The notes: generated by a model from the letters alone, not told the origin. 64,000 bases of DNA from Amoebophrya sp. A120 (GCA_905178155.1 CAJINV010000004.1:8392882-8456881), one strand, 5' to 3'. Positions 16,405 through 58,600 are shown, counted from the first letter of the stretch. Program-made: numbers and translations.

Positions 16405-16656
16405 TATTAAATGTAAAAATGTCTGGGTCTGGAAGAATGCAGGTTTGTCATGCTTGTCTGGCATAACTCTGAAATCTGTCATGCACGTCACCCAAGAGCT
16501 CCGCTTTTCTGTGATGCAGAAGCGCAGTTTGTCATGCAGAATAGGCAACACCTAGAAGCCCAGAAACTTGTCATGCTGAGCCAGCATTTGTGGCCTCATC
16601 ATGAGACGCCACCCAGCATCACAAGTTTCCAGACCCAGACATTTTTACATTTGATA
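16405..16656. mobile_element. Introner family A2 (252 bp) between two copies of an ~80-bp unit
   Basis: Highly similar to 22902-23153. Confidence 0.85.
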
Positions 16657-20999: not shown

Positions 21000-23900
21000 A
21001 CATCACAGCAGCTCCTCCTGCGAGGACGTAGACAAGGGAAACCACTGTCGTCCTGCAAGCGCGTCGTTTGGCGCGCTGCAGCGTGTAGTGCGACCGAGCA
21101 CTCGATTGCACTTTTATGTTTATGTATGCCTATGCGCAGCAGTATAACCAATTACACAAGGAGCGATGCGGTGTGAGAAAAGGCTTTTCTTGATGATACA
21201 CACCGTGTCCCGTTTGGGGAGGCCCAAATCTGCTTCATCTTCCGGCCTACACGAGTGCGTGTATGGAAGTGGCTTCATTTTTGCCCAAACGCGTCGGAAA
21301 AAATTCACGATGCCCGCTTGCCCGGACTTCTTCTTTCGTGAATTCGTCTTGTCCCAGACGGTTACCAGATTGATTGCGGCCTTGGTATGTTCTTCCAGCG
21401 TGTTTTGCGGAAAATTTTTTATTTTTACAAGGAGACCTGGGACAGGTTCTTGGCCTTGTTTTGTTTCCGGCAGGGACTTTGCATCGGCGCCAGCTTTGTC
21501 ATCCGTCATGGGATATCAACTGTAAAAGTGTCTGGGTCTGGAAGAGTCATGCTGTTTCTGCATGACACAGAAGGTCTGGCATGGAAGCTCTAGCATCACA
21601 GGTCTCGAGAAGCTTTCGCAATGCCGAACCCGCATGACAAATCCCACATTTTGGTGACAGAAAGTGAGTAGCTTTTGCTACCTATGCATGAGAGATTTTC
21701 GCGTGTTCTGAAATGCGCATCACAGGTTACATCCTTCCAGACCCAGACATTTTTGCAGTTGATATGGGACCCACCTCCGGAAAGTCGCGGCCCTGAAAGA
21801 CTGCAACCACATTTGCCTCATCGCTCAGGATATCAAATGTAAAAATGTCTGGGTCTGGAAGATTCTGAGATTTGTCATGCATATTTCGGATCACGCAAGT
21901 GGCGTCTGATGCAGGCAAAAGCATCACAGGTTTTGAGCACGCCTCATGATGCCTGTCCCGCATGAGAAACTTCCTACTTGCGTGCCAAGAAATGGACAGC
22001 TTTTGGCGCTCATGCAGCACAAATTTTTGTGTGTTCCAAAGTTTGCATCACAAGTTCCAACCCTTCCAGACCCAGACATTTTTGCATTTGGTACAGGAGT
22101 TTTGTAAGACGTGTGCGTAGCCAGGAGGTTTGTCGCAACGTTCTCCTTGTTTCGTCTAGCACTTTTTGGGCTTGATCGTCCTCCGGCCCGTTGCTTGATA
22201 CAGGAACCACACCTGAGTCCTCGTCCGGTGATACGTAGCGAACGAGCGCTCCATTCGTCCTTCCTTCAAGAATGTAACTGGGTGTGGCTGCGATTTCCTT
22301 TACGATAAGTCGCTCGCTTTGAGGTTTCGGCGCGTTGATGATGTCAGCGATGTCAACTTCTTCGTCAGCACGTTCTTTTTCGGGTTCTTGCTTTTGCTCC
22401 TCTTCCCGCATCGTGATCTTGTACAGCGAATAGACTTCCAAGTTCGTGAACACCTCCTTCGTTGCATACCAGACGGGCAACATGACTGGCACCCCAGTAC
22501 AACCGCCGGCGCCTCGTGCTTTTTGGTATTTTAAGTTTTCCCCTTCGCAATGCGCCAAAACGTGCATGTGGTCAACCATACTGCCCTCCCATGCGGGCCG
22601 CGTAACTTGTTCGTCAGCATTGCCGAAAATGAAAAACCCGATCCGCCCCTGGCTCATTTTGCTGTTGTCCGCTTCAATCACGTGGACTGGGACACCGTCG
22701 TTGTAAACGGCGATCCGCTTTCTGTATGTCCCGCTTTCAGATCCCAGTGTTTTGTCCAGATTTTTCTGCCCGACTTTGACGGCGATCCTCGTTCCCGTGG
22801 TTTTGACCAGATTACGTAGCCCCGTGTTTGCCGCCGTCGTGGCAAGAGCGGCAAGAGGTGCGAAGGGAAACACGGCAGTGCCGATCAGGGCGCCAACGCT
22901 ATATCAAATGTAAAAATGTCTGGGTCTGGAAGAATTCACGTTTGTCATGCTTGTCTGGCATGACTCTTAAATCTGTCATGCAGGTTACCCAAGAGCTCCG
23001 TTTTTCTGTGATGCAGAAGCGCAGTTTGTCATGCAGAATAGGCAATACCTAGGAGCTCAGAAACTTGTCATGCTGGAGCAGCATTTGTAGCCTCATCATG
23101 AGACGCCACCCAGCATCACAAGTTTCCAGATCCAGACATTTTTACTTTTGATACGCTAATGGCGGGAACAACAACGTGGGCGGCCGACGCGATGCCAACG
23201 TTAACAGCAGCCGGCAGAGTATCAAAGAAAAAAAGTTCGTCACGATCACTCATGCGCATTCTTGCAATACAAAATTGTTTGTCATGCGTAAAAATGCATC
23301 ACAGCCAAACTTCGTTAGGGATTTCCCTAGTGTTTCTGCAATACAAGAAAAGTTTGTGATGCTGAGAAGATTTGTAATGCAAAACCTGCAAGTTAGTGAC
23401 TGTGACAAACTTTTTTCTCTCCATACAGAGCGGTGTTTCGTATGAACTCGAGCAACGGCCTTTCAATAATGCCCGTGTCCCGCTCTGCAATCACGACGTC
23501 AACTGTCAGCTTGTTCCTGGATCCCACTTTAAGGTAGTTGCCCTCGTTCACGCGCGTCCAGTCTTTCTTCCGCATTCTCGTTATGTATTGCAAAAATATC
23601 TGGGTCTGGAAAGCTGGAACTTGTGATGCTACTTTTGGACTCTACATAAAATCTGTATTGCATGAACAGCATAAGAGGCGCAATTTGTGCTACGCGGAGA
23701 GGGCATTTCTCATGCGGTATGAGCATCAGAAAGCCCTCGCAGAGTCTCTGATGCTAGGGCATGCATCACAGACCTCATGGGTCCTGGAAAATCTGCATGA
23801 CAAGCTTCTGCATTCTTCCAGACCCAGACATATTTGCATTTGATACTCGTCGAAGGAAGAGGCTCGATGGGGAGGCAGGTCCAATCTTCGTGTGTGCTGA

Positions 23901-36625: not shown

Positions 36626-39600
36626 TCAAATTTGTGCCTTCGTGTGCAGTATGAGTTGCTCGAGCTGTGTGCAGCACTTCGCCAAGTTGATTTCGCCCAC
36701 GCCAGGAGCAGTACCTCCCTCGCTATAATTCTCGTGTTCCACTAAGTAGTGGTGCTTCACAAATTTTAACAGCAATAAATTGCTTTCCAGCTTCGCCGCT
36801 AGCTGGAACTTGTTCATGATCTCCGTGCCGGGTTTGATGTTGTTTGAGAACCCTGTCATCTGCTGCTGGTAACCACCACCGCCTCCTCCTCCGCCACTCT
36901 TGCTGTTGTTTCGACTCGAAGCGTTGTAGTGTACTATACCCGAGTTGCTATTTTTGCACAGATCCGTCGAGGCTTTCAGGGCGTACTTCGTCAACAGCTT
37001 TCCCGGGTGGTGACGCTGGAGGGAAAGCGACTCCAAATTTGGATACTTTTTCTGAAACAACTGGAGCGCTTTCTGCTTTGCTAGATCCGTGGTGTTGGTA
37101 CTAGTAGAGTCGCGGGGGGAGCAGGGGGAAATCAGCATGTTTCCATTTGGAGCAGATGATGCCAGACTGTGCTGGCTCCGTTCCTTCAGCTGCTCCAATA
37201 AGCTGCAGCACTCTACCAGACAGCACGCGCTCTCGGCGGGCTGGTGCGATTCCGCGTATTTCTCTGCCAAAAAGGCAAACTGCTCCGCGACGCGCCGTTG
37301 GTCCTGGAACGAGGGGAAAGAAGGTGGCGGGGCCATCGGGGCCACTCCTGCGGCTGGAGTCGAAGTTGGGAGTGTCAGTGGGGTCGCTGTACTAGTGGCT
37401 TGTTCTTCGTTGCATCGTGACGCATTTTTTGGTGCCGTCGTCAGTGCGGGCGGAACTTCTAGCTGGAAGTCAGTAACAGCAATCTTTGGTTCGCTTGGGG
37501 TATTACTTCCCTGTACAGGATCTGGTTTTACTTTGGCGGTTGTGCCGAGATCTACTGCTTCCTGGGGGCGCTGCAATGGTCCTCGCGATTCTACTCCTTC
37601 CATCATCCCAGGTGTAGTAGACCCGTGTCGCAGCTGCGCTGTGGACGATACTTCTTCGATAAGCGGCTTTTTTGGAGATGATGAGGAGGTTCTTTGATCC
37701 GACGTATTGAGCTCTACCACTCCTTGACCGGTTAGTTCCCGAGCAGGTTCCGGCTTCCCCCGGGGTTCCACGACCCTAGACGCAGGGGAGAAGATTTTCA
37801 ACTCCTCTGCAGTACTGTTAGAAGATGTAGTTCCACTCCCACCGTGGAGGTCAACATCTCCTGATTTCGTTTTCACGGGACTCGGCAACCGGATTTCGTC
37901 CAGGGGCGGCTGTACTGGTGGCGCACGACTGCTCTGCGTGTGGTCGTCGTGTTTAATCTTCGTGGAGGACTTTAGCTCCTCTATCTCTTCAGGATGAACT
38001 GAGGGCGCTGGTGGTGCTTCGTTTTTCTTTTTATCCTTCAGCCCCAAAGCTTCGGTTGTACTAGTAGTGGCAGGATCAGCAGCGGTGGCGAGTTTCTTCT
38101 CCGGAGTTGTTCCTGCAAGATGTTGTTGAAGAGCAGCCGCTTCTTCACCCCGCTCGAAGTTTTCTTTCTCCTGTTCCTGGCTGACCATGACAAACGACAG
38201 GTTTCCGATCCCACCACTTGTGATGTTTGAATTTTGTCCGTCAGAAGTATGCATTGCAAACCAAGCATCGTTTCAAAGTAGTCTGAATCAAGAACTGTAT
38301 TTGTAATGCGGTACCCGAGCGGTGTGCGAATGCATGCTGTCATGTAAAATCGCATCAAGATCGTCAATCTAAGTACTTGTACTTTTTCAATATAGTGCTT
38401 TCTACGATGCGCTTGTTGCATGGAATAGTTTCCGTTTTTCGAGGCGGAGCCTCCTTCTTCGTCATCTGCTTTCTCCACCCCGACGTACAATTTATGAATT
38501 GCAAAAGCATCGTACTAGGGTAGTATGAATTGCATTACAAATTTCCTCAGCATGAGAACTCGAGTTTGTAGTGCTGAATGACCTTAAGAAAAAGATTTGT
38601 AATGCGTAGCTGCAATTACTACGAGTACGATACTTTTGCACTGGATACAATTCTCCGTCGGACAATTCCTTGACGGAAAATTTGCACTCTTTCAAATCCT
38701 ATCAAATGCTAATATGTCTGGGTGTGGAAGAATGCAATTTGTGATGCTGTCTCTGCATTCTAAAAAAAAATCTGTATTGCATGACCAGCAAGAAGAGTTC
38801 ACTTTGTCCCACATGGAGACGGTATTTCTCATGCGGAAGAGGCATCAGGAAGCCCTCTAAAAATCTGTGATGCTAGGTTATGCATTACAGCCGTCATGGG
38901 TCATGTAAAGTTTGCATGACAAGTCTTGCATTCTTCCAGACGCGGACATTTTTGCATTTGATAAATCCAAGTCCCCCGCGACGTACTCGTGGTGCATGAA
39001 CGCGTTGGCCGGCAGTCGCTTCGCGGGATCCTTTTCCAGCAAGAGCGACAAAAATTTCTTCCCGTTGTCGCTCAATCTGCAGCTTTCCGGGAACGCGGGC
39101 CCGTTCGCCTGCTCGATGTTGGCCAGGAGCTGCATCGGAGTATGGATTTGCAAAAAATTCTTGCTTTATTCTTGTTCCGTACTTTACACGACGACGACGA
39201 CACGTAGCCATGAGATTCAAGTTGCATCACAAAATGTTGATTTTCCAGCTGTGTTCATCTTGATCTTGTACGGTGCAAATATAAGAATTTTTCGCTTCTG
39301 ATACGGATTCGGCCCCGTGAAAGGCGTTTTCCCGACGAAGCACTCGAAAAGAATGGCGCCGACCGACCACAGGTCCGCCCGGGAGTCGTACTTTTGGTGT
39401 TGCAAAATTTCCGGCGCCATGTACAGTGGCGAACCGCACACCGTCGCCGCCATGTCCTGGGGAAGCAACGCGCGGGAGAAGCCAAAATCCGCGATCCGCA
39501 GCACCGGGTTGTTTTCGCTGTCTTGGATGAGCAAGATGTTCTGCGGCTTCAAATCCCGGTGGATCACGTTGTGTCGGTGTAAAACGTTCAGACCCGAGGC

Positions 39601-42600
39601 GAGCTGGCGGAGAAACAACCGCCCCAGCGACTCGGAGATCGATCCACCGTGGGTGGCGATGTAGGAGGAAAGGTCGCTATCCCACGAAAAAACTGTTTCA
39701 CTGTGATGGTTTTGCAAGATCTGCATCACAAGTTTGTTACACATGACACAGAAAATTTGCCATGCGCGTTTCCCAAGGGAAAACACGCTTAAAAATCCAT
39801 TATGTTGCAGGTGTAGCAAGACAAACACTTTGGTGTTTCGTTCTCTGCATCACAGGTTCGCAGTGAAACAGTTTTTTCTTGCGATAGTCGCCGCCGTTGC
39901 AGTACTCGAGGATGAGGTAGAAGTGGCTCGTATCCTGAGTAAAAATGTCCCCACACCAGAGTCAAGATGGGAAATCCGCTAGACAAATCCATAAGCTTTG
40001 GCTGTTTCGCATGACAAATTTGGACGCGTAGTGTAGTGCTGTTTGAGCTAGCTAAGCAGCATTACAGATCTAGTATCTCATGCTGATTGGCGCATGACAT
40101 CGGTGGTCTACGGGCAGGCTGTCCCGGTGGCGCTTTGGCCAATCGTACAGAGAAAAAACAAAAAATACAAGTTAGGTAGGAATACATTTGAAGGTTATGA
40201 ATGAAGTCAAAAGTCGTAGAGACAGTATTAAAGTAGTTCCTACGGGCATGGTCACGATTGGGCAACAGAGGGTAGAGTCACGATTGGGCAACAGAGGGTA
40301 GAGCAACGAATTGTTACGCATCTATCCGCTGGTCAAGTACGAGGAAAACGAGAGCAGCATCGAAGAAGAGAAAGGCGCGCAAGCAGGGCAGCCCAGCAGC
40401 AGCAAAAATATCAAGACAAGAAGCAGACTACCGCCACCCGGGGTCCTACCCGACCGAGAACTGTACTGGTATGGGCCAACATACCATAAAAGGTACAGAA
40501 GAAGGGTAGGTGCTCGCGTAAAGAGAAAGATGACCAAACCTACAGCGCCCGAGGGTGCATGCTCACCACTGTAGGATAATCTCTTTACCGTCTGCCAGCA
40601 GACAAGCCACTGAAAAACAAGGCAGAGCAAAGTAAACAACCAGGTTGGAGCCAGCAGGCCAACCGCAACAAGACCGCGAAGCAAGAGATTGGAACCCGCA
40701 GGTCAATCAGAGCGAAGCGACAAAGGGCAGGCGTAGCGGCCAGAGCAAGCATAACGAGAAAAAATATCTACTACCGTTGGTAGGTCGTGCAGCGAGAGTA
40801 TTTCAACGAAGTTTTTCAGAGGATAGTTTGACGTAGTTCAACGCATTCACACGAAAGACGTACCGAGTGATAGCGTGCACTTCTCATCACGAGATCGTAG
40901 AACTATTCATTGAGTGTTTACTTTTTTTCTTGCAACGACTACTACAAATTATACCTCTATAAGTTCAACTCCATACTTTTGTACTACACTACTGCGCGCT
41001 TTCAGTCACGAGAAGCTTTTTGCTTGTACGCATCTCGGTCACAGACGAAGTGTATAAAGACCGAGACCCGAAGCAAACCATAGATTCATCATTGTGCGCT
41101 AATTTTTTAAAAAAATATGTAGTCTTGCGTAGTTCTAAGTTCCTGGTGATGTTTGGAAAAGAACATGATTGCACGTACACGATACCTCGCGTGTACATAA
41201 AGACCGTTTTCTTACCTGCCCTGGAGAATAGAGATCATAGATTTTTGAACTTTGGGCCGCAAGCCAAAAAGGGCTCCGTCAAGAACGACAGTGGAGACCC
41301 AAGCGCAGCAGGAAACCTTGCTTTGTTGGGGACATGAGGGAAGGAGGAGACGGAGAGAAAAAGCAGGACCAGCAAAAGCAGAGCAAGAGTAAGATGCCGG
41401 GGACACGAGGAGAAGAAGCGAAGCCAGCACCAGAGGAACCAAAGACCTACAACCGTCATGGCATCCGCGAAACAGAACAACGGGCCGAAGGAAAGGACCC
41501 TCAGCCCCGCCACCCGCGGAGGGAGAACGGGACCCACAAACAACCCGGCCCCCCACGAAGCCCGAAAGGCCGAGGTGAAAAAGGGTACCTCCCGGGAGGG
41601 GACCCGGGAAACACGCAAGAGACGAAGCCGAGCGACCGCCGCCGAAGGAGAACCACCCGAGGAAGGTAGAAACCTACAACCGTCGGAGCACGGAAAAGAA
41701 GCGGTGTTGGGGACCAAACCCAGATGAGTCACGGGGCGCGTGCCCAGGCGACACATCCGACAGTGAAGGCCCAGTCGGGTAAAAAACCGAAACCCGCCAG
41801 CCACACCACCGGGACGAACATGCGTAGAGACCTACCGTAGAACCGCTAGGAACGGCAACGCAGAAAGGCCCGCCGTAGAACCGCTATGAACGGCAACGCA
41901 GAAAGACCCGTCAGTGACCTAAGGGCCAGCGGAGATGGTACCCCAAAGAAAACCACCGGTGACCAAAGGGCCAGCGGAGATGGTACCCCAAAGAAAACCG
42001 CCGGGCGCGAACATTCTGACTTTAGAATGAAAATTCTCATGCTCTGATCTCTATTGTCTCTTGTCGTTGTTCTTCTTCGTTGTTTTACGTCGTTGTTCCT
42101 CGTCGTTGTTCGGTTCTCCAAAAAATTGTACAGATGACTGTTTTTCGCGGTTCATTATCTTGTTCATTATCTTGTTCGTTAATTTGTTCATTCTTTGCGC
42201 CTTGTGTCACCAGGTTGGTATTCTTGTTCGTGTCGGTTAGTAGTGGTAGGAGGAGGACTATGGGCAGCACGGTGTAATTCTTTGGCTCTAGTACCAGTCT
42301 GGTTGCCGGTACGAGGATGGTCGCGGGCAGCTGAACGGGCCCAGTAGTCCATCTAGTTCCATCTGCAGCACCTCGGCATTTGCTCGATCAACGGAGTCTT
42401 CCATAGCCCATCCGTATCCGGGCACGAAGTGCCAGCGGATGGAAAACTCCCAGTAGTCGCGTGTTGTGTCCCAGGGTGAAGCTGGGGAGCCAGTGGAGTT
42501 GCTGGTAGACATGGACTCAGTTTCCGGACGTGACGACGAAGGAGCAGAAAATGAGGAGGGTGCGGAACTTGCTATTCGCTGCGTGGGGTCGTCCGTAGAG

Positions 42601-44676
42601 TTCGCGCGCGTCAGCAGCAATCGCTCGATTTGGAATATTGTAGATTCCTGGGTAAGTCCGAGATCGTATGAAGGTGTTTCAGGGAGCTGGACGAACGGAT
42701 TAGCCGGCATATGGTTCTGCTCCGTGCACGCCTGGACCGATGTCGTCCAGCTTCCCTCTTCACCACACGGTGGCGCGTCATCTTGGACCTGGAGCGGGCT
42801 GTCTTGTGGGGAATCGAAGCACAGACGTACCCGCTGCAGCGGGCTACTGTTCTCGTCTGACATCGTCAGTGCTGTTCTACTGTCCTCGGCGTCTAGATGT
42901 GTGGGTAGGCACTTTGGTAGGCCTTGTCAGGAGGGGTGTCAGATTCGTGCGCAGAACTACCGCCGTCTTCCCGGCTATCTACGTCGAGCTCCACTCCCCT
43001 CGTAGCGCTGCTCACGTCACGATCGCACTACTTCGAAGCGAAACTTGTGGGATAGGCCCTCGCCAGGTCTACTTCTACTTGACTGCGTTGCGACTTGCAC
43101 TGCCTGAGAAGATAAAGGATAAACAAACCCGAGCAATAGCAAGCTTTCCATAAAAGTTCGGGCGTCTTATATCTTAATTGAAAAGGCTGAAAACCAGTAT
43201 AGCTCCGCGTCATACACTAACAGCCCCTTCCCTTTATACCAGGCCTCGAGTCCGTCGGGGGTCGTCACTGTCTCTCGTGGCGTCTTACTGTTTTTTATTT
43301 TTTTTTTTTTTTAGAAAAACCACTGCAACAGCAGTGCGCGCCTACAGTGCTAGTCCCGCGGAAGATCTTAGTCTAGCTGGTGCTTTTGATGCTGCATAAA
43401 GAACGAAGGAAGAGCCTTTGCTCAGCTGTTGCTAAAATGTGGCTAAACCGAGGAAGTCGAGTTCAAAGAAAAGCTCTGCGCGACAAAATACTAGATAGAT
43501 ACGAGAAGACAGTCACGAAGTTAACAAAATGAAGTCGAAAATTGAAAAGGGAAGAAAATGAAAGCTACTATAATCTACTACTTTAAATTGTTTATTGAGC
43601 AAGCACACTCCCGTGCTGTTTCCTGTAAATGTTTTCGTTTTATTGGAATGCTTGATGTAAACTGGCGAGGTCTACCTACTACACACAATGCAGCCACTCT
43701 TGCAGTGTCTGCGGGCTGCTGGGTCTGGAGTGGATGGGTGGAGTGAAGCTGTTACTGCGTGGTCGGCGGTAAGCTGTAGGGAGCCTCTGTACTCGCTGCA
43801 GGGTGGGAGTCCAAAATCGGAAGAAGCTTTCTAGCTGGTCCTCCCTCGCCTCGATCTCAGCAATTGTCTTAGCCGGGACCATCAGCATGGGGCTGATATC
43901 AAGGAACGGGTTGGGCTGGGGCATGTGGAGCCACGCCTCCGTCTCATTTTGCTTCTCCCGCTGTAGTCGCTCACACTTCAATCTGCGTCGCTGCGGTGTG
44001 GTCGCAGGTGTGCGGGGAGTAAAGATTTCACGCGCAGGGTCGCGATGCATCTTACGGAACTGTCGGCCCCACGACTTCATGACAGATTTCCAAACCGCAT
44101 TAGAAAATGCTTCTCATGGGGCTCCGCATGAGAAACATTTTAAGCATGCAGAGTAGCATGACAACTATGGTGTGGGTACGTTTTTACACAGGATAGCTCG
44201 CGGATTTTTTCAAATCCCGGAACCGAACAATGTGGGGGGATTGGAGCTTTTTCAACACCGCCACCTCCTGCTTCAGCTGCGCGGTCTCTTGCACGGTCTG
44301 CCGGGAAATTACTTTCACCGCAACTAATTCCCCAGTTTGCTCCACGCGGCCCTTCCAAACTTCCGCAAAGCTGCCCTTCCCGATCTTTTTGTCGAGGATG
44401 TAACCGCCAGCCATGACAATGCACAACTCCCCCTTCCCCTCGTTTGTCATGCAAAATACCAAGTCCCCCCTTTTCATTTCTCTTTGGCACATCTTGCATT
44501 ACAGATTTCGGAAGCCGAAACAGCACTAGACTGGGTCGCGAGTAGTTTGTCATGCAAAGCTGCATTTTTACCAGCACTTGCGTTGCTGTTTATGCCATTC
44601 AAATGAGGGGGGAGGGGGAGATGTGCACTCTCATACCAACCTGCTTCTTGCTCGAGGTTGTCGTGGAGGAAGACAT
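36626..44676 (-). CDS. ATG1: ATG1/ULK-family Ser/Thr kinase, 8 exons separated by 7 introners; 3' end may extend further
   Basis: Reconstructed MSSSTTTSSKKQVGGYILDKKIGKGSFAEVWK...AVK...KKSAS|HFYLILEYCNGGD|LSSY...HRDLKPQN...DFGFSR...CGSPLYMAPE...KYDSRADLWSVG...GPNP|MQLL. Confidence 0.85.
38248..38427. mobile_element. Degenerate short introner family F
   Basis: TATGCATTGCAAACCAAGCATCG...CGATGCGCTTGTTGCATGGAATA; TSD lost; frame restored. Confidence 0.6.
38493..38647. mobile_element. Short introner family F (155 bp)
   Basis: TIR containing TGCAAAAG(C/T)ATCGTACT; perfect TSD caatt. Confidence 0.85.
38700..38963. mobile_element. Introner family A (264 bp)
   Basis: Perfect TSD aatcc. Confidence 0.9.
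39141..39303. mobile_element. Short introner (163 bp)
   Basis: TIR containing GC(A/G)AAAAATTCTT; flanks cggag/cggat; splits the kinase C-lobe. Confidence 0.85.
39678..39886. mobile_element. Introner family B (209 bp)
   Basis: TIR TATC(C/G)CA(C/A)GAAAAAACTGTTTCACTG; perfect TSD gtcgc. Confidence 0.92.
40100..44077. mobile_element. Unclassified 3978-bp insertion flanked by a 7-bp direct repeat CATGACA
   Basis: CATGACA at 40093-40099 and 44078-44084; absent from the intact family copy; contains short tandem repeats, a T-tract and small ORFs. Confidence 0.8.
42288..42863 (-). CDS. Putative 191-aa cargo ORF of the nested insertion
   Basis: ATG-started ORF; no recognisable domain. Confidence 0.35.
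   Translation of the reverse strand: MSDENSSPLQRVRLCFDSPQDSPLQVQDDAPPCGEEGSWTTSVQACTEQNHMPANPFVQLPETPSYDLGLTQESTIFQIERLLLTRANSTDDPTQRIASSAPSSFSAPSSSRPETESMSTSNSTGSPASPWDTTRDYWEFSIRWHFVPGYGWAMEDSVDRANAEVLQMELDGLLGPFSCPRPSSYRQPDWY
44412..44635. mobile_element. Introner family G (224 bp)
   Basis: TIR (C/T)ATGA(C/G)A(A/G)TGCACA(A/T)CTCCCC; flanks ccagc/ccaac. Confidence 0.85.
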
Positions 44677-50705: not shown

Positions 50706-53700
50706 TTATTTCAACGCCATCAGCTTGGTGAAAAACAGCCCCACAGTGTTCGTCGCAATAAAGGTTTCGTCGATGATTCCCTTGACTGCCATGCCGTTCG
50801 CCTTTATGATCGTCACCTCTTCCTTGGATGCAAAAAAGTTCGCCACGTCCTCGTTTCCAATCGCATCCTGGTCGCCGGAAGTTGTACTAGATGGCAGAAG
50901 TTGCGTACTGTTCGTCGTCCCCACTCCTGCTGCAGCATCAGCCGGATTTTTCGCACGATTCACGCCTCGGTTGGCTATCACCGTGTTCAGCGTCTCCAGC
51001 AGGTGTGGGGGCAATTGCGGTGCAACGATCTTGTAGATCTCGTCTTCGTGCTGGTTGTCCTTCTGCTTGTTTTGCTGCTCGTAGTTCATCCTCGAGGAGG
51101 GCTGTTCAGGAGCCATCTGCTTCTGCTCCATGTAGCTGCTGTAGGTGGTGGGAACGGCGCCCCCTCCGGAAGAGGAAACGCGCCTGCGCTTGTTCTGGTG
51201 CTGCGCACCACTTCTTTCGAACCCGTCGTGGTCGTGGTGCCTTTCGTAATTTTTGTCACGCCCACCGCGCATCGTGGCGGCCGATGAGTTGTTATCTTGA
51301 ATTTGATCCGAAAGAACCTCGTCGGGCTCCGGGATAATGTCATTCCGGCGCTCCTCACGGTGCTGGCGGTACGAACCAGCACCTGGTTCGCGGCCTCCGC
51401 GCCGGCGGCTGCTCGTACCTCGTGGGCCCGAGGCGGCGGGTGGTTGGGTTTTAGTACTACGTGCATCTACGGCTCCTCGGAGGTTGTTGTTGGCGTTGTT
51501 ACCTGTTCTTCCCCGGCTGTGGTCTCTACTGGGATGTTGTTGCCCTCTTCCTCTCGAGTCGGTCATATTTCTACTATTCTGTGCGGTATTCATCTTGGTC
51601 GTGTGCCGGCGTTGTTCTCTAGAAGACGAGAAGTCCTTCTTTTTCTCGTTGTTTTGAACGATATCTCTATCCCGAGAAGAAGCTCTGGTATGATTATTTT
51701 TGTTCACAGCGTAGTTCTTATTGTAGTCTCTACTCTCCCTGTCCCTCCGCCGTCGTAGTTCCTCTTCTTCTTCGCGCTGTTTCTCCCTTGTTTCCGCCCG
51801 CTCGCGCTCCTCCCGCTCTCGTCGCACCCGCCGCTCCTCCCGCTCTACCCGCGCCTGCTCTTGCTCTGCCCACTCCTGCCGCGCGCGCTGCAGCTCCTCC
51901 GCCCGGTCCCGTTCTTCCTGCGCCCGCCGCATTCGCATTTGTTCCAACTCGCGCTCCACCCGTTCGCGCTCCACCCGTTCGCGCTCCGCCCGTTCGCGCT
52001 CCGCCCGCTCGCGCTCCGCCCGCTCGCGCTCCGCCCGCTCGCGCTCCTCCTTTTGCTCACGGACGCGCTGTGCCTCCCGTTCCCTCGCGGCCCGGTCCCG
52101 TTCTTGCTGGATCCGCAACTCCTCGCGCTGCCGAGCTTCCTGTTCTGCCTCACGCTGCGCTTTTTTCGCAAGTTCTTCTTGTTCCCGCAGCTTCTTCAGC
52201 CGCGCCTCCTGCTGCGCGGCCCACAGCGCGTTCTGCTCGTCGCGCTCCGCCTGCTCCTGCCGTTGTAGTCGTTCTTCCCGTTCTCGTCTCTGTTCCGCCT
52301 CCTGGTCGACGTGGCGGTTGCCCCGATAATTATTGTCTCGGCCGCGGCTGGTGTGGTTCTTTCGCGTAGTAGTGCCTTGGACGGATTGGGATTCGTGATC
52401 TCTAGTACTGCGGGCAGGGGCCGCACGGTGGCGGTCATAATTTTCCCGACGGTCAGCATGATCTCCGTGATGCGACTGTTGTTCCCGACGACCACCTCGT
52501 CCGCGGCTGCGACTGTTGTTCCTCGCCGCACGATAGTTGTTTGACGTAGTTTCTCGTGCGCTGCCACGGTCGTTGTGCTGTCTCCGGTCGTCCGTCCTGC
52601 TCCGGGGCGTCCTGCGGCGGTGGTGGTTTTCGTCTTGGTTTGGATGGTTAGTTTCCATTTGTTCGTCTCCTCGGGGCAGGTTCATAGAAACAGTACTGGG
52701 TATAGAAAAAGTACCAATACTTCCATCGGGGTTCATGATCAAAGCCTCGCCGGTGCGGACCGCGTATGTCGTCTGCACTTCTAAGGGTATGAGTTCTTCG
52801 GGGGGACAAGTGAACGTCTGCGACGCCGGGGGGAGATCCCGGGCAATGCGCTGGGCGGCGGGAGTTGTAGTTCTGTGCGTTGGCAAAAGTTCTTCCGCAG
52901 GTGGATTTTGTACAGCTTGATTTTGGTCCACCACGACGGGCGGCGGCGCGGCCGCTTTGATCGAGGATGCTTTCGCCGGTACAATCTCGCCCTTCGGAAC
53001 CCGCACGAGGCTTTCAGCATTGTCAGTCTGTTGCTGCTGTTCGCTGCCTTCCTTCGACCCCGGAACGCTTTTTGGCGGAGGCAACCGCCACCCGGTGCTT
53101 CGGCAATGTTGCGCGATCAGGGCCGCCAGCTTGGGGTTTTTCTGCACCTGCTGCTGCAATGCTGGGTTGTCCATCGGGTGAACAATCGCCGGCGGGGCTA
53201 CTTTGCTAACCGCGGGGGGTGCGGGGTTTGAGTGGTTAATATCTTCGTTCTGGTCAACTACACCTGGCGCTGCGCCTCCGCTGTTCTTCGGGGGCCGCAG
53301 ATCCTGGTCAACTACCCGTTTCGAGTTCGACAGGTCTGGCATCGCAGGAAAAAAGCGTTACAGTTACACACTGTGTTGCAGGCCAAGCAAGACAGACAAG
53401 CTCTGTCATGCCGGATATGCATAGGATCCTCGTTTCACAGGTGGTTTCCCGTAGGATTTCTCCATTACAAGTTTTCTCTCTCATGCAGAGAAATTTGTGT
53501 TGCTGAATTCACTACAAATGTGTAACTGTAACACTTTTTTCGTGGGATATCCGGGTACTGAAAAGCAGTAGAACCACGACCGCTATTTGCAGCGGGCGTT
53601 TGGTTCTGCTTTGGGTTTTTATCTTGCTGTTGTTCACGGTCTACTTGATCATGCTCGTCCCACCTCGGTCCTCTGATATTAGCCTCGGGCTCCTGGTGCA

Positions 53701-55653: not shown

Positions 55654-58600
55654 TTATGCAATAAAAACCGGTAGCTTCTGGTGAATTACGCGACGGCACA
55701 CGGGGCAGTGCTGCAGCTGCGTGGAGCATTCGTATCAAAGTGAAAAAAGCCCCCACTCCATATCGGAAACGGAGGATGCGCGAATTTGTGATGCTGTATT
55801 TGAGTACACAAATCGACTTGTATTGCTAGAAGGCCAAGAGACGAAGCTGCGGCCTAAATTGCAGGCAATCTGTCATGCTGTTTCCCACTTCCAGTTGCCT
55901 CCTGTCATCCTGGAGCTGCAAGGCTTTCCCACGCTAGACAGCACTACAGTCCGCATCTTTTGCCTTCTAGCATCACAAAGCTGATTTGTGACCACAAATC
56001 TGCATCACAGATTTCCGTTTTGATATGGGGAGGGGGCATTTTTCATTGTAATAGTTCGGGACAGCAAACCAGGTGGCAGCACGGGTAGAAGACGACCTGA
56101 CTGGTACCGTGAGGAAAGATCCCCCCTCCCCATATTGAAAACGTATGTTCCTAAAAATTTGTGATGCTGATTTGTGACCACAAATCCTGTCTCTCTTGCA
56201 AGAAGGCAAGTCCAAAGAATTCGCAGCCTTATTGAGGCGATTTGTATATGCTGTCTCACGTAGATGGCGGGCCTCTGTCATGCTAAGTGCCTACAACAAA
56301 ACACCCCTACGCAGGCTGAGGCTTTGCTTGTAGTGCCTCACTGCAAGACAGGGCTGATTTGTCTACACAAATCCAGCAACAGAAGTTTCCGTAACAATAT
56401 GGGGAAGGGGGATTTTTCACTTTGATAACTGGGCTTGTCCAGACACACACTGCACATCCGATCGGAGGAGAGAATTTCCTGAGAATTTGTCATGCTGAAA
56501 ATTTTTGCCTCCCAAACAAAACTTTATTTGGCACGCATGATAGAGCCGCTCGGAAACGGAATAAAGTAGACTCGAATAGCAGAGCATCAGAATCACCATG
56601 TGGTTATCATACATGATAATCGTACTCTGGTACAACATATTTGACACCTGCAGTTCCGATTTCTGCTGTTCGACCGCTTGGTTTTGCGCGAAAAGCTCCT
56701 CTTTGATCTTCTTCAGCGCCTCAATTTGCTGTTGGTATTCGTGCTGGTCCAGGGCCGACATTCGGCGAAACATGTGCTGCTGCCGCAACAGAATCTCGTC
56801 CGTGTTATGCTTTTTCCCCTCGAGCCAGTCATACCTGCGCTGCAACGCCGCGGCCCGGGCCTCGGAAATGGCACAGCGCTCCTTCCAGGATAAAGTGTCC
56901 AACTCCTCCTGTGATTATTTCGTTTCAAATTTATTGTATTTGGGCATGAAAACAAGTTCTCGGTTGTTACGTGCTGGGGACCATTGTCATCCTGTACGAA
57001 CAAAGCATAATGCACAGTAGGATTAAGATGTTCTTTACATCGGGCTGGGTCCATCTTCGCGTGGGCACGAAAGACAGCGATAATCATGTCGTAAAAACCT
57101 GACTTGGTTCCGGCCAGGGGGGCGGCGGCTCATCGGGGTCTACGAGTTCGGAGGACATGGCAGGAGCTTTGCTTCCAGCCATGAAACCACCTGCGTTCTT
57201 GCTGGAGGAAGATGATGAGCTGTACATCAAGTCCCGTCCTGTTGGCGCTGGACTCAAGACCGACTGCACAAACTGCGACACGTTCCTGGCCGCCTAGTCT
57301 ATGGAAGCGTCAGGATTGAAATCGTTAAAGCTGATATAGTACTATAGTTTGTGATGCATAAAATGCTAGTCGCAAAGTGCCTGTCTTGCAGACCAGGCAA
57401 CTGCGGCCGATTACAAGCCTCCTTGGGGTGTGAGATAGAGCTGCTAAAATAGCATGACAAAAGCAGTCATCTTCTCTGCTCAAACAGCATGACAAATTGG
57501 ATTTTCCATGCTGCCTTTTTTGTCATGCGCCACTTGCAAACTGGGCTCCAGCTGGTATCGCTTTTTTGCATTACAGATTATTGCAACTTTGATGATTTCG
57601 GTCCTGACACTCCCATATGGTCGAAAAGCTCCGTAAACGTGTTCGCGTTCGCGTTGTTCGCGTCGTCGGCGAATAACCTATTGGACGACCCGGTGGTGTT
57701 GCGTGGGTAGTCGTACTGAATTCTCGGTATCGCCGGGTCGAACGGGGGCCGGGCGGCACTGCTAGAGGAGGAAGAGGACGCTATCCTGAGTAAAAACGTA
57801 CCCACACCAGAGTCGGGATGGGGATTTTGCAACACAAACCTAGGAGTTTTGTGAGTCACGCATGACATAAACAGACTGTGCTACTGCGGTGAGTCACGCA
57901 TGACAAGTTTCAGTCCGTAAGGTAGTGCAAGTTAGCAAGGAAAGCCGCATCACGAATCGATCTGCTGATCCTGTTTACAGCATTACAAGTTCCCAAACAC
58001 GATTGAAAATGCCTGTCATGGGATTGCGCATCACAAATGTTCCTGTCATGGCAAATCTGCATGACAACTCTGGTGTGGGTACGTTTTTACTCAGGATAGA
58101 CGCACCAGCGGCAGCACCCGTAGTAGTTGTACTACCCGGCAGCAGCGAAAAGTATCCTGTGTAAAAACGTACCCACACGACCATAGTTGTCATGCTACTC
58201 TGCATGCTTAAAATGTTTCTCATGCGGAGCCCCATGAGAAGCATTTTCTAATGCGGTTTGGAAATCTGTAATGCGCCAATCAGCATGAGATACTAGATCT
58301 GTAATGCTGCTTAGCTAGCTCAAACAGCACTACACTACGCGTCCAAATTTGTCATGCGAAACAGCCACAGCTTATGGATTTGTCTAGCGGATTTCCTATC
58401 TTGACTCTGGTGTGGGGACATTTTTACTCAGGATAAAAAGGGCTGGATAATGGGATTCGGGCGTGGAAGATTTTGGTCCCGATGATCCCGTGGCGTCTCC
58501 GGCAAACTCCGCAGTCGCTGCCGGGCCACCGCATCGCGCTCCCGGACGATGGCCGCTGGGTCCGGTGGAATTTGCCGTGCCGAGTTGGTGTCCGATGTGG

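Follow-up and report, generated by a model that had tools for sequence, protein, structure and literature searches.

A 3,978-bp insertion at the core motif of an introner in a putative ULK/ATG1-type kinase gene of Amoebophrya sp. A120 is retained in RNA assemblies

What becomes of an introner, an element that is itself removed from RNA, when a second piece of DNA interrupts it, and what brings that DNA to its site? A 64,000-nt stretch of one strand of the Amoebophrya sp. A120 genome (GCA_905178155.1, CAJINV010000004.1:8392882–8456881; the window, with positions counted from its first letter) contains a minus-strand gene predicted to encode a ULK/ATG1-type kinase, in which a 3,978-bp segment (40100–44077) splits an introner of a repeat family here called family C. 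Introner elements of Amoebophrya have been described as having inverted ends of 8–20 nt, a direct repeat of 3–5 nt at the exon/intron border, many copies and a hairpin RNA, and their non-GT-AG removal restores the exon (Farhat et al. 2021, PMC7789003). The initial annotation of the locus had proposed that the segment belongs to a second-level parasite that targets introner motifs as a harmless site because introners are spliced out. We find the segment at the introner's core motif GCATGACA and the interrupted introner retained in RNA assemblies, and we tentatively explain the locus, at a little under an even chance, by a single, non-replicative integration that was directed to this motif by an enzyme acting in trans.

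The split introner was recognized by comparison with an intact copy of 283 bp in the same window. In reverse orientation, this reference is 98.2% identical over 169 bp to the sequence on the left of the insert and 96.7% identical over 121 bp to the sequence on its right. Inverted ends of 18 nt start with TATCCTG at 39931 and at 44195 and match over about 26 nt, and GCTCG flanks the whole element on both sides as a 5-bp target-site duplication (TSD). The intact copy is flanked by AAAAG, and family C therefore makes a 5-bp duplication. The ends of the intact copy pair in the predicted RNA fold, which is a long hairpin (fold z = -5.39). The window holds three related copies, and both halves of the split introner have a summed DNA depth thousands of times that of single-copy sequence. 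The host element falls within the published ranges for inverted ends and border repeat and has many near-identical genomic copies, so that in ends, direct repeat, copy number and hairpin it resembles the introners described in PMC7789003. When the element and one GCTCG copy are removed, together with the neighbouring introner whose removal RNA supports, a single kinase-domain frame stays open across KKSAS/HFYL. Three statements of the initial annotation are borne out here: 3,978 bp between CATGACA repeats split a family-C introner (by alignment to the intact copy, by sequence and by contigs over both junctions), the terminal inverted repeats (TIRs) and TSD of the introner are intact, and the kinase frame is restored on removal. 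A diverged relative, about 70% identical, aligns colinearly with the short form across the breakpoint; the short form therefore predates the family split, and on this alignment the 4-kb segment is a later, derived insertion into an introner and not an ancestral long form. The features concerned are as follows.

39926–39930, no strand: left TSD copy GCTCG (plus-strand letters), read from the sequence
39931–40099, minus strand: left half of the split family-C introner (3' half in gene orientation), inverted end included, from alignment to the intact copy
40093–40099, no strand: left CATGACA, part of GCATGACA at 40092–40099, from the sequence
40100–44077, no strand: the insert, 3,978 bp, transcribed, from the sequence and RNA contigs 40229–41950 and 41970–44130 (0 mismatches)
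44078–44084, no strand: right CATGACA, from the sequence
44078–44195, minus strand: right half of the split introner (5' half in gene orientation), with the inverted end finishing at 44195, from alignment to the intact copy
44196–44200, no strand: right TSD copy GCTCG, read from the sequence
57782–58098, plus strand: diverged relative (identity about 70%) that aligns continuously over the breakpoint
58153–58435, plus strand: intact 283-bp family-C introner used as reference, duplication AAAAG, from alignment and fold

Both junctions recur in public sequencing runs, from a set coded X1 to X11; in the raw RNA runs X9 and X11, 0 reads could be placed on the locus. We called X1, X3 and X5 RNA because of their exon-exon joints, the label itself being a guess; X4 and X6 are DNA-like, X10 is a small raw-read run, and X1 and X3 are one sample. 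Contigs cross the left junction in X1 (40017–40136), X3 (40022–40136) and X5 (40022–40417) and the right junction in X1 (41970–44130), X3 (to 44121), X5 (43324–44127), X6 (to 44116) and X4 (to 44111). Three samples of two studies yielded these short-read contigs, and the assembly itself may derive from one of the three. Misassembly at the junctions, which the initial annotation had named as a way in which its reading could fail, is unlikely. In the DNA-like runs, insert and unique flanks are equally deep (X4, 43.6–44.2 versus 42–51; X6, 24.5–29.8 versus 18–31), and there is therefore no sign of an allele without the insert; the haplotype of this kind that had been suggested as a check is not evident.

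The 7-bp direct repeat CATGACA abuts the insert on both sides. CATGACA or its complement occurs at 68 sites in the 64 kb, i.e. at about 0.1% of positions, and a random 7-bp duplication would therefore equal the motif core at about 0.1% of sites. The longer motif GCATGACA was counted 57 times in the window versus 2.39 times expected (~24-fold excess; none of 100 shuffles was as high). Judged from these counts, chance does not account for the position of the insert at the motif. As had been proposed, CATGACA forms the core of the shared motif, but the intact window copy reads CATTACA, a decayed motif, at the target position, and so does the diverged copy. A contig of a DNA run with a depth of 438 (single-copy depth about 44) joins 40092 to 44078 with seven shared letters. 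Many intact genomic copies must therefore have CATGACA at the target position, and the insert met a well-preserved instance of the motif. Inside introners of several families (e.g. 16446–16576, 22943–23073 and 57452–58357), GCATGACA recurs every 30–40 bp, and introner interiors therefore look like arrays of the core motif. No consensus matching the end motifs or the core motif is present in 12 of the 14 supplementary files of Gozashti et al. 2025 (PMC12130899), which contain family tables, and neither motif occurs in the main text of PMC7789003; family C could accordingly not be assigned to a published family.

Copy number differs along the insert. Summed contig depth of X4 in 267-bp bins is 142.6, 152.9 and 77 over 40136–40936 and 43.6–46.5 from 40937 to the right junction, except for 57.7 in a tandem-repeat bin (41738–42004). 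A 121-bp contig at 40138–40258 has a depth of 195 in X4 and 155 in X6, the X4 contig 41970–44111 holds single-copy depth through the right junction, and the pattern in X6 is alike. The left 0.55–0.85 kb of the insert is present about 2–5 times per genome and the remainder once, at an identity of at least 95%.

40092–40670, no strand: multi-copy left part of the insert including GCATGACA, at about 3–5 times single-copy depth, from depth bins and a loose end at 40092 in X1 and X3

A second copy of the left end is expressed: a contig of X1 and X3 matches the window from 40092 rightwards, i.e. GCATGACA and the left end of the insert, while the 119 nt in front of this match are unrelated and occur nowhere in the window. 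The shared part starts exactly at the G of GCATGACA, and the known left-end junctions at the motif are therefore two of two. The proposal of motif targeting, made from one junction, now has two; the parasite family that it implied is not visible, the segment being single-copy over about 40940–44077 and its right end unique. Two differences between samples, at 40187 (A in samples S2 and S3, T in the window and S1) and at 40626 (T in S2), lie within the multi-copy left part, and the listed contigs of the single-copy part (40853–44111) have none; what differs may be the copies and not the strains.

The two introners next to the split one served as positive controls for removal from RNA. The joint from 39672 to 39887, which skips 214 nt and has five shared letters, has depths of 190, 226 and 26 in X1, X3 and X5 and 0 in X6; the joint from 44406 to 44636, which skips 229 nt and has three shared letters, has depths of 170, 120 and 18 in the same three runs and 0 in X6. 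Neither was found among the 15 joints listed for X4, for which 61 further joints exist. The shared letters leave the intron ends ambiguous by five (39672/39887) and three (44406/44636) positions. On the gene strand the intron 39673–39886 has the non-canonical ends TA..AC, and the element is removed together with one duplication copy; in their non-GT-AG removal the neighbours resemble published Amoebophrya introners (PMC7789003). The interior of the 39673–39886 introner has a depth of 0 in X3 and 1.3 in X5, versus about 25,000 in a DNA run, and DNA carry-over is therefore negligible.

39673–39886, minus strand: neighbouring introner of another family, duplication GTCGC, spliced in RNA (positive control), from the joint 39672 to 39887
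39887–39930, minus strand: 44-nt micro-exon HFYLILEYCNGGD between two introners, from RNA contigs that join it to 39672 and continue into the split introner
44196–44406, minus strand: upstream kinase exon (glycine loop to the end of KKSAS), Pkinase E 2.6e-12, in contigs 44112–44406 (X3, X5) and 44158–44406 (X1), joined to 44636; RNA depth 169.9 (X1), 120.2 (X3) and 18 (X5)
44407–44635, minus strand: upstream neighbouring introner, spliced in RNA (second positive control), from the joint 44406 to 44636
40229–41950: RNA depth 86.6 (X1), 85.7 (X3) and about 6 (X5)
41970–44130: RNA depth 171.5 (X1), 144.1 (X3) and 15–18 (X5)

The split introner behaves differently from these controls. The micro-exon continues into it (as far as 40025 in X3, 40022 in X5 and 39976 in X1), and so does the upstream exon from the other side (contigs 44112–44406); RNA contigs tile the whole insert without mismatch or internal joint. 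No joint spanning 39931–44195 is listed in X1, X3 or X5. Exon RNA depth overall is 170–190 in X1, 120–226 in X3 and 18–26 in X5. The depth of the upstream exon equals that of the right part of the insert, which therefore leaves little room for a spliced population. A canonical GT...AG pair inside the inverted ends, use of which would add 15 nt in frame, was also considered as an intron, and no such joint occurs in the RNA contigs. The retained transcript reads KKSASYPV and then a stop, three codons past the KKSAS exon. RNA contig depth about halves to the left of about 41960, in agreement with the reads of X10, in which all 22 placed reads lie on 42083–42138. Eleven of them have a poly-T run before 42083, and 20 of the 22 have letters after 42138 that we take to be adapter; the reads have four starts and hence come from few molecules. 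A polyadenylated RNA of the minus strand thus probably ends at 42083, some 205 nt past the stop of an open reading frame (ORF) of the insert, ORF-B.

42083–42138, minus strand: likely 3' end of a minus-strand polyadenylated RNA, poly-A joined at 42083, from X10 reads

Retention of the interrupted introner is thus observed in the RNA assemblies, and we infer that the insert is its cause. The earlier expectation of a spliced-out safe site, with TIRs pairing 4.2 kb apart during splicing, is contradicted by these contigs. Unlike the introners described in PMC7789003, the split copy bears 4 kb of foreign sequence, stays in RNA assemblies and lies outside the published intron set, which was limited to 40–1000 bp. 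In the account of Gozashti et al. (PMC12130899), long ORF-bearing introners, e.g. family 38 of A120, are functional introns with integrase-like ORFs; length alone may therefore not explain the retention. Family 38 is like the split copy in having kilobase-scale sequence between introner-type inverted ends in a gene, and unlike it in that our insert has no integrase-like ORF, is a secondary insertion and is retained.

The insert itself could not be placed in a recognized class of mobile DNA. It has no TIRs (best end-to-end local score 11 versus 12.8 ± 2.2 in shuffles, 871 of 1000 being as high), no long terminal direct repeats or gag/pol domains, and no A or T run at either end as read from the sequence. 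A Pfam scan of its 78 ORFs (13 of at least 100 amino acids and 65 of 35–99 amino acids) for transposase, reverse transcriptase, integrase, recombinase and Rep families returned no mobile-element domain: neither a tyrosine or serine recombinase nor a reverse transcriptase or endonuclease was found among them, and the only rows, YhiY, VirB3 and Extensin_1, are all under the curated cut-offs. Helitrons have 5'-TC and CTRR-3' ends and insert between A and T without duplication. Inspection by eye of both strands, in all registers that the 7-bp repeat allows, found no such A/TC...CTRR/T ends, and there is no Rep/helicase domain. There is no second copy of the insert within the window, and no family member shares its right end, which is unique at k = 31 (shared ends of less than 31 nt would escape). 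An Rfam scan gave only two weak rows far under the gathering scores, a tRNA scan gave none, phage and plasmid records had no blastn match to the insert, and metagenome contigs had 0 matches to a 28-nt pattern of its left end. The classes whose defining features, as far as covered here, the insert lacks are a TIR DNA transposon (no inverted ends, transposase or two-ended relatives), a long terminal repeat retrotransposon (no terminal direct repeats, no gag/pol), a non-LTR retrotransposon (no reverse transcriptase, no poly-A or simple-repeat tail), and a Helitron (no end signature, no Rep/helicase). With a Crypton or other recombinase element the insert shares the short direct repeat equal to the target core and the lack of inverted ends, though no recombinase gene was found in it.

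Under the explanation that we tentatively favour, a staggered 7-bp cut at the edges of the motif, or a 7-bp crossover, would have produced the flanking CATGACA repeat, and the segment would have been moved rather than copied, which would explain its single-copy interior. At other motif sites, the additional left-end copies may represent partial remnants or truncated relatives. The transcript continues past the KKSAS exon into the introner, where translation would stop after three further codons, and some transcripts may end at the poly-A site inside the insert. We take the event as motif-directed because the flanking repeat is the motif and a second junction lies at it; the single-copy interior, the missing end signature and the lack of an encoded enzyme favour non-replicative integration in trans. 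Given retention and the premature stop, the insert therefore acts as an ordinary disruptive insertion and not as a silently spliced passenger.

Several points weigh against this explanation. No enzyme, terminal signature or second full copy marks the segment as mobile, and it fits no recognized class. The left-end junctions at the motif fit targeting, and they fit equally well if GCATGACA belongs to the left-end repeat; the second of these junctions is a single contig of one sample. The copy-number gradient is read from summed contig depth in 267-bp bins, in which copies of less than 95% identity are invisible. As to retention, loose ends at 39931 and 44195 in the RNA runs show further family-C copies that also look unspliced, and the RNA controls are two neighbouring introners and not an intact family-C copy in a coding exon. 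Contigs lose rare variants, so that a minor spliced form is possible, and each depth is a whole-contig mean.

Two orphan ORFs on the minus strand of the insert have a codon use that resembles that of the kinase exons, and neither has a Pfam match, a homologue (in a search of near lengths only) or an Atlas hit; for ORF-B, viral contigs returned no locus and two candidate stretches were counted.

42288–42863, minus strand: ORF-B, 191 amino acids from the first Met, orphan, codon score 0.116 versus -0.23 and -0.26 in the other frames
43679–44080, minus strand: ORF-A, 133 amino acids, orphan, codon score 0.065 versus -0.29 and -0.29 in the other frames
41250–42000, plus strand: T-poor block (3.5–9% T on the plus strand) with tandem repeats of 38 and 45 bp, from composition

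The first ATG of ORF-A (44078–44080, minus strand) is formed by the right CATGACA copy and gives an in-frame start for the 133-amino-acid ORF; a second Met follows 10 codons into the ORF, and the ATG from the flanking repeat may be accidental. The tetranucleotide correlation of the insert, 0.72, is low-normal for the window (0.67–0.9), and foreign origin is neither shown nor excluded by tetranucleotide use. Tandem repeats of 26, 38 and 45 bp (about two copies each) and of 12–13 bp (about four copies) lie at 40251–40309, 41828–41910, 41914–42004 and 42054–42192, clustered near a switch from T-poor to T-rich sequence at about 42020. The T-poor block keeps all three plus-strand frames open, and plus-strand ORFs there therefore carry no weight. 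A second skewed block in the window belongs to an 883-codon open frame (50709–53357, minus strand) for an extremely R/E-rich protein with ERERAERER-type repeats, which leaves the plus strand with 4–9% A over 51350–52700; skewed composition alone is therefore not unusual in the window.

This content fits an alternative that is unlikely but deserves serious weight, in which the motif suffered a staggered double-strand break, for example through the enzyme responsible for introner movement, and end joining captured a non-mobile, unrelated 4-kb fragment during repair, with fill-in of the 7-nt overhangs giving the repeat. A captured fragment would be expected to lack terminal repeats, mobility genes and a terminal signature and to have a unique right end and a single-copy interior, as the insert does; its resemblance to local DNA in tetranucleotide use, the two orphan ORFs with host-like codon use and the likely poly-A site point the same way. 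However, the source of a copied fragment should give double depth, which is not seen, and one would have to account separately for the second left-end copy next to GCATGACA.

Distinctly less probable is a recombination guided by homology, with GCATGACA as part of the left-end repeat and a crossover or template switch between 7–8-bp motif copies, e.g. Crypton-like or att-like integration of a circle that had been cut out between two motif copies at another place. The direct 7-bp repeat without inverted ends, the great abundance of the motif and the sharing with the second copy that begins exactly at the G of GCATGACA are all consistent with it, and the single-copy interior fits excision and re-integration. 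Yet the insert has no tyrosine or serine recombinase domain, neither a circle nor a donor scar was seen, and the copy-number gradient at the left end would be left unexplained.

The full model of the initial annotation, a second-tier parasite family that targets introner motifs as a spliced-out harmless site, has become very doubtful. Its 7-bp repeat equal to the motif core, the second left-end junction at the motif, the intact inverted ends and duplication and the restorable frame all stand. Against them, no joint across 39931–44195 exists in three RNA-like runs in whose contigs both neighbours are spliced, the equal depth of upstream exon and insert leaves no room for a sizeable spliced fraction, and no two-ended multi-copy family is seen at an identity of at least 95%.

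We are equally sceptical of retroposition by target-primed reverse transcription, in which the insert would be a non-autonomous element derived from a minus-sense RNA, with its 3' end at 40100 and with left-end copies as 5'-truncated progeny. A 7-bp duplication is within the usual range for this process. The depth gradient of 143/153/77/44 from the left end resembles that of 5'-truncated copies, read as summed contig depth with the flanks of the other copies unseen; the ORFs and the poly-A hint share this sense, and host gene and element are transcribed together. Non-LTR retrotransposons have also been published as a source of introners in Amoebophrya sp. A120 (PMC12130899). On the other hand, position 40100 lacks a poly-A or simple-repeat tail, no reverse transcriptase or endonuclease was found, and copy-and-paste should leave a source, yet the interior is single-copy. 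Last, that the 4.26-kb form is ancestral, maybe autonomous, and the 283-bp introners are deletions between its CATGACA repeats, or that the assembly is in error, is highly improbable: the locus would look no different after deletions between direct 7-bp repeats, and miniature-element families typically have a single master copy, but the diverged family (about 70% identical) aligns without a break over this point, no transposase was found in the insert, and both junctions recur in contigs of three samples.

The insert shares features with several known systems. In nested transposon insertions, a later element lies inside an earlier one within a gene, with read-through, a premature stop and likely premature polyadenylation. 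The insert resembles these in lying inside an introner inside a gene, with read-through, a premature stop and likely early polyadenylation, and differs from them in that it is of no recognized class and its flanking repeat is the ~24-fold over-represented motif. Other elements are specific to multicopy targets, such as R1 and R2 in ribosomal DNA and the Dada DNA transposons in small-RNA genes, which make 6–7-bp duplications. The defined, short, multicopy target, the 7-bp flanking repeat and the co-transcription with the target recall these elements, whereas the insert has no reverse transcriptase, endonuclease, DDE transposase or inverted ends, and only two junctions and no visible family are at hand. 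Like Cryptons and att-type integration, the insert combines a lack of inverted ends with a short direct repeat equal to the target core; unlike them, it contains no tyrosine recombinase, and no circle has been shown.

The host gene was identified as a ULK/ATG1-type kinase from its predicted protein. Its kinase-domain exons on the minus strand match Pkinase with E values of 1.2e-37 and 2.6e-12, and the nearest solved structures are ULK1/ULK2 (E 5e-37), the next family following at 2e-26. A 548-amino-acid ORF downstream (36629–38272), which may belong to the kinase gene, has no Pfam match, and hence none to the C-terminal ATG1-type tMIT domain. At least four introners lie within about 6 kb of the kinase gene (38640–44636), at about 38647–38963, 39673–39886, 39931–44195 and 44407–44635; the boundary of the first comes only from breaks in DNA contigs. 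Ten of the 13 ORFs of at least 250 amino acids in the window are on the minus strand, which resembles the one-directional gene layout described for Amoebophrya genomes (PMC7789003).

A wider proposition, which we consider unlikely, is that GCATGACA, which recurs as a core within every local introner family, also serves a second tier of mobile DNA as its point of entry, with a TIR-less, enzyme-less 4-kb element and shorter relatives entering with a 7-bp repeat and the full-length copy being co-transcribed; intact inverted ends and direct repeats would then be insufficient for non-canonical removal, which would need a short distance or an intact interior.

How introners with hairpin ends and without GT-AG borders leave the RNA is not yet settled (PMC7789003), and the locus is a natural test of it: with its ends and duplication intact and 4 kb added at the apex, the element stays in a transcript from which its two neighbours are removed. 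If the retention is true, removal depends on distance, on interior sequence or on competition with a poly-A site. If neither the retention nor the point about the motif holds, the locus is simply an autophagy-type kinase gene disrupted by an ordinary insertion. The flanking repeat being the ~24-fold over-represented motif at two junctions would make this motif a site of DNA cutting or exchange, which bears on how introners move.

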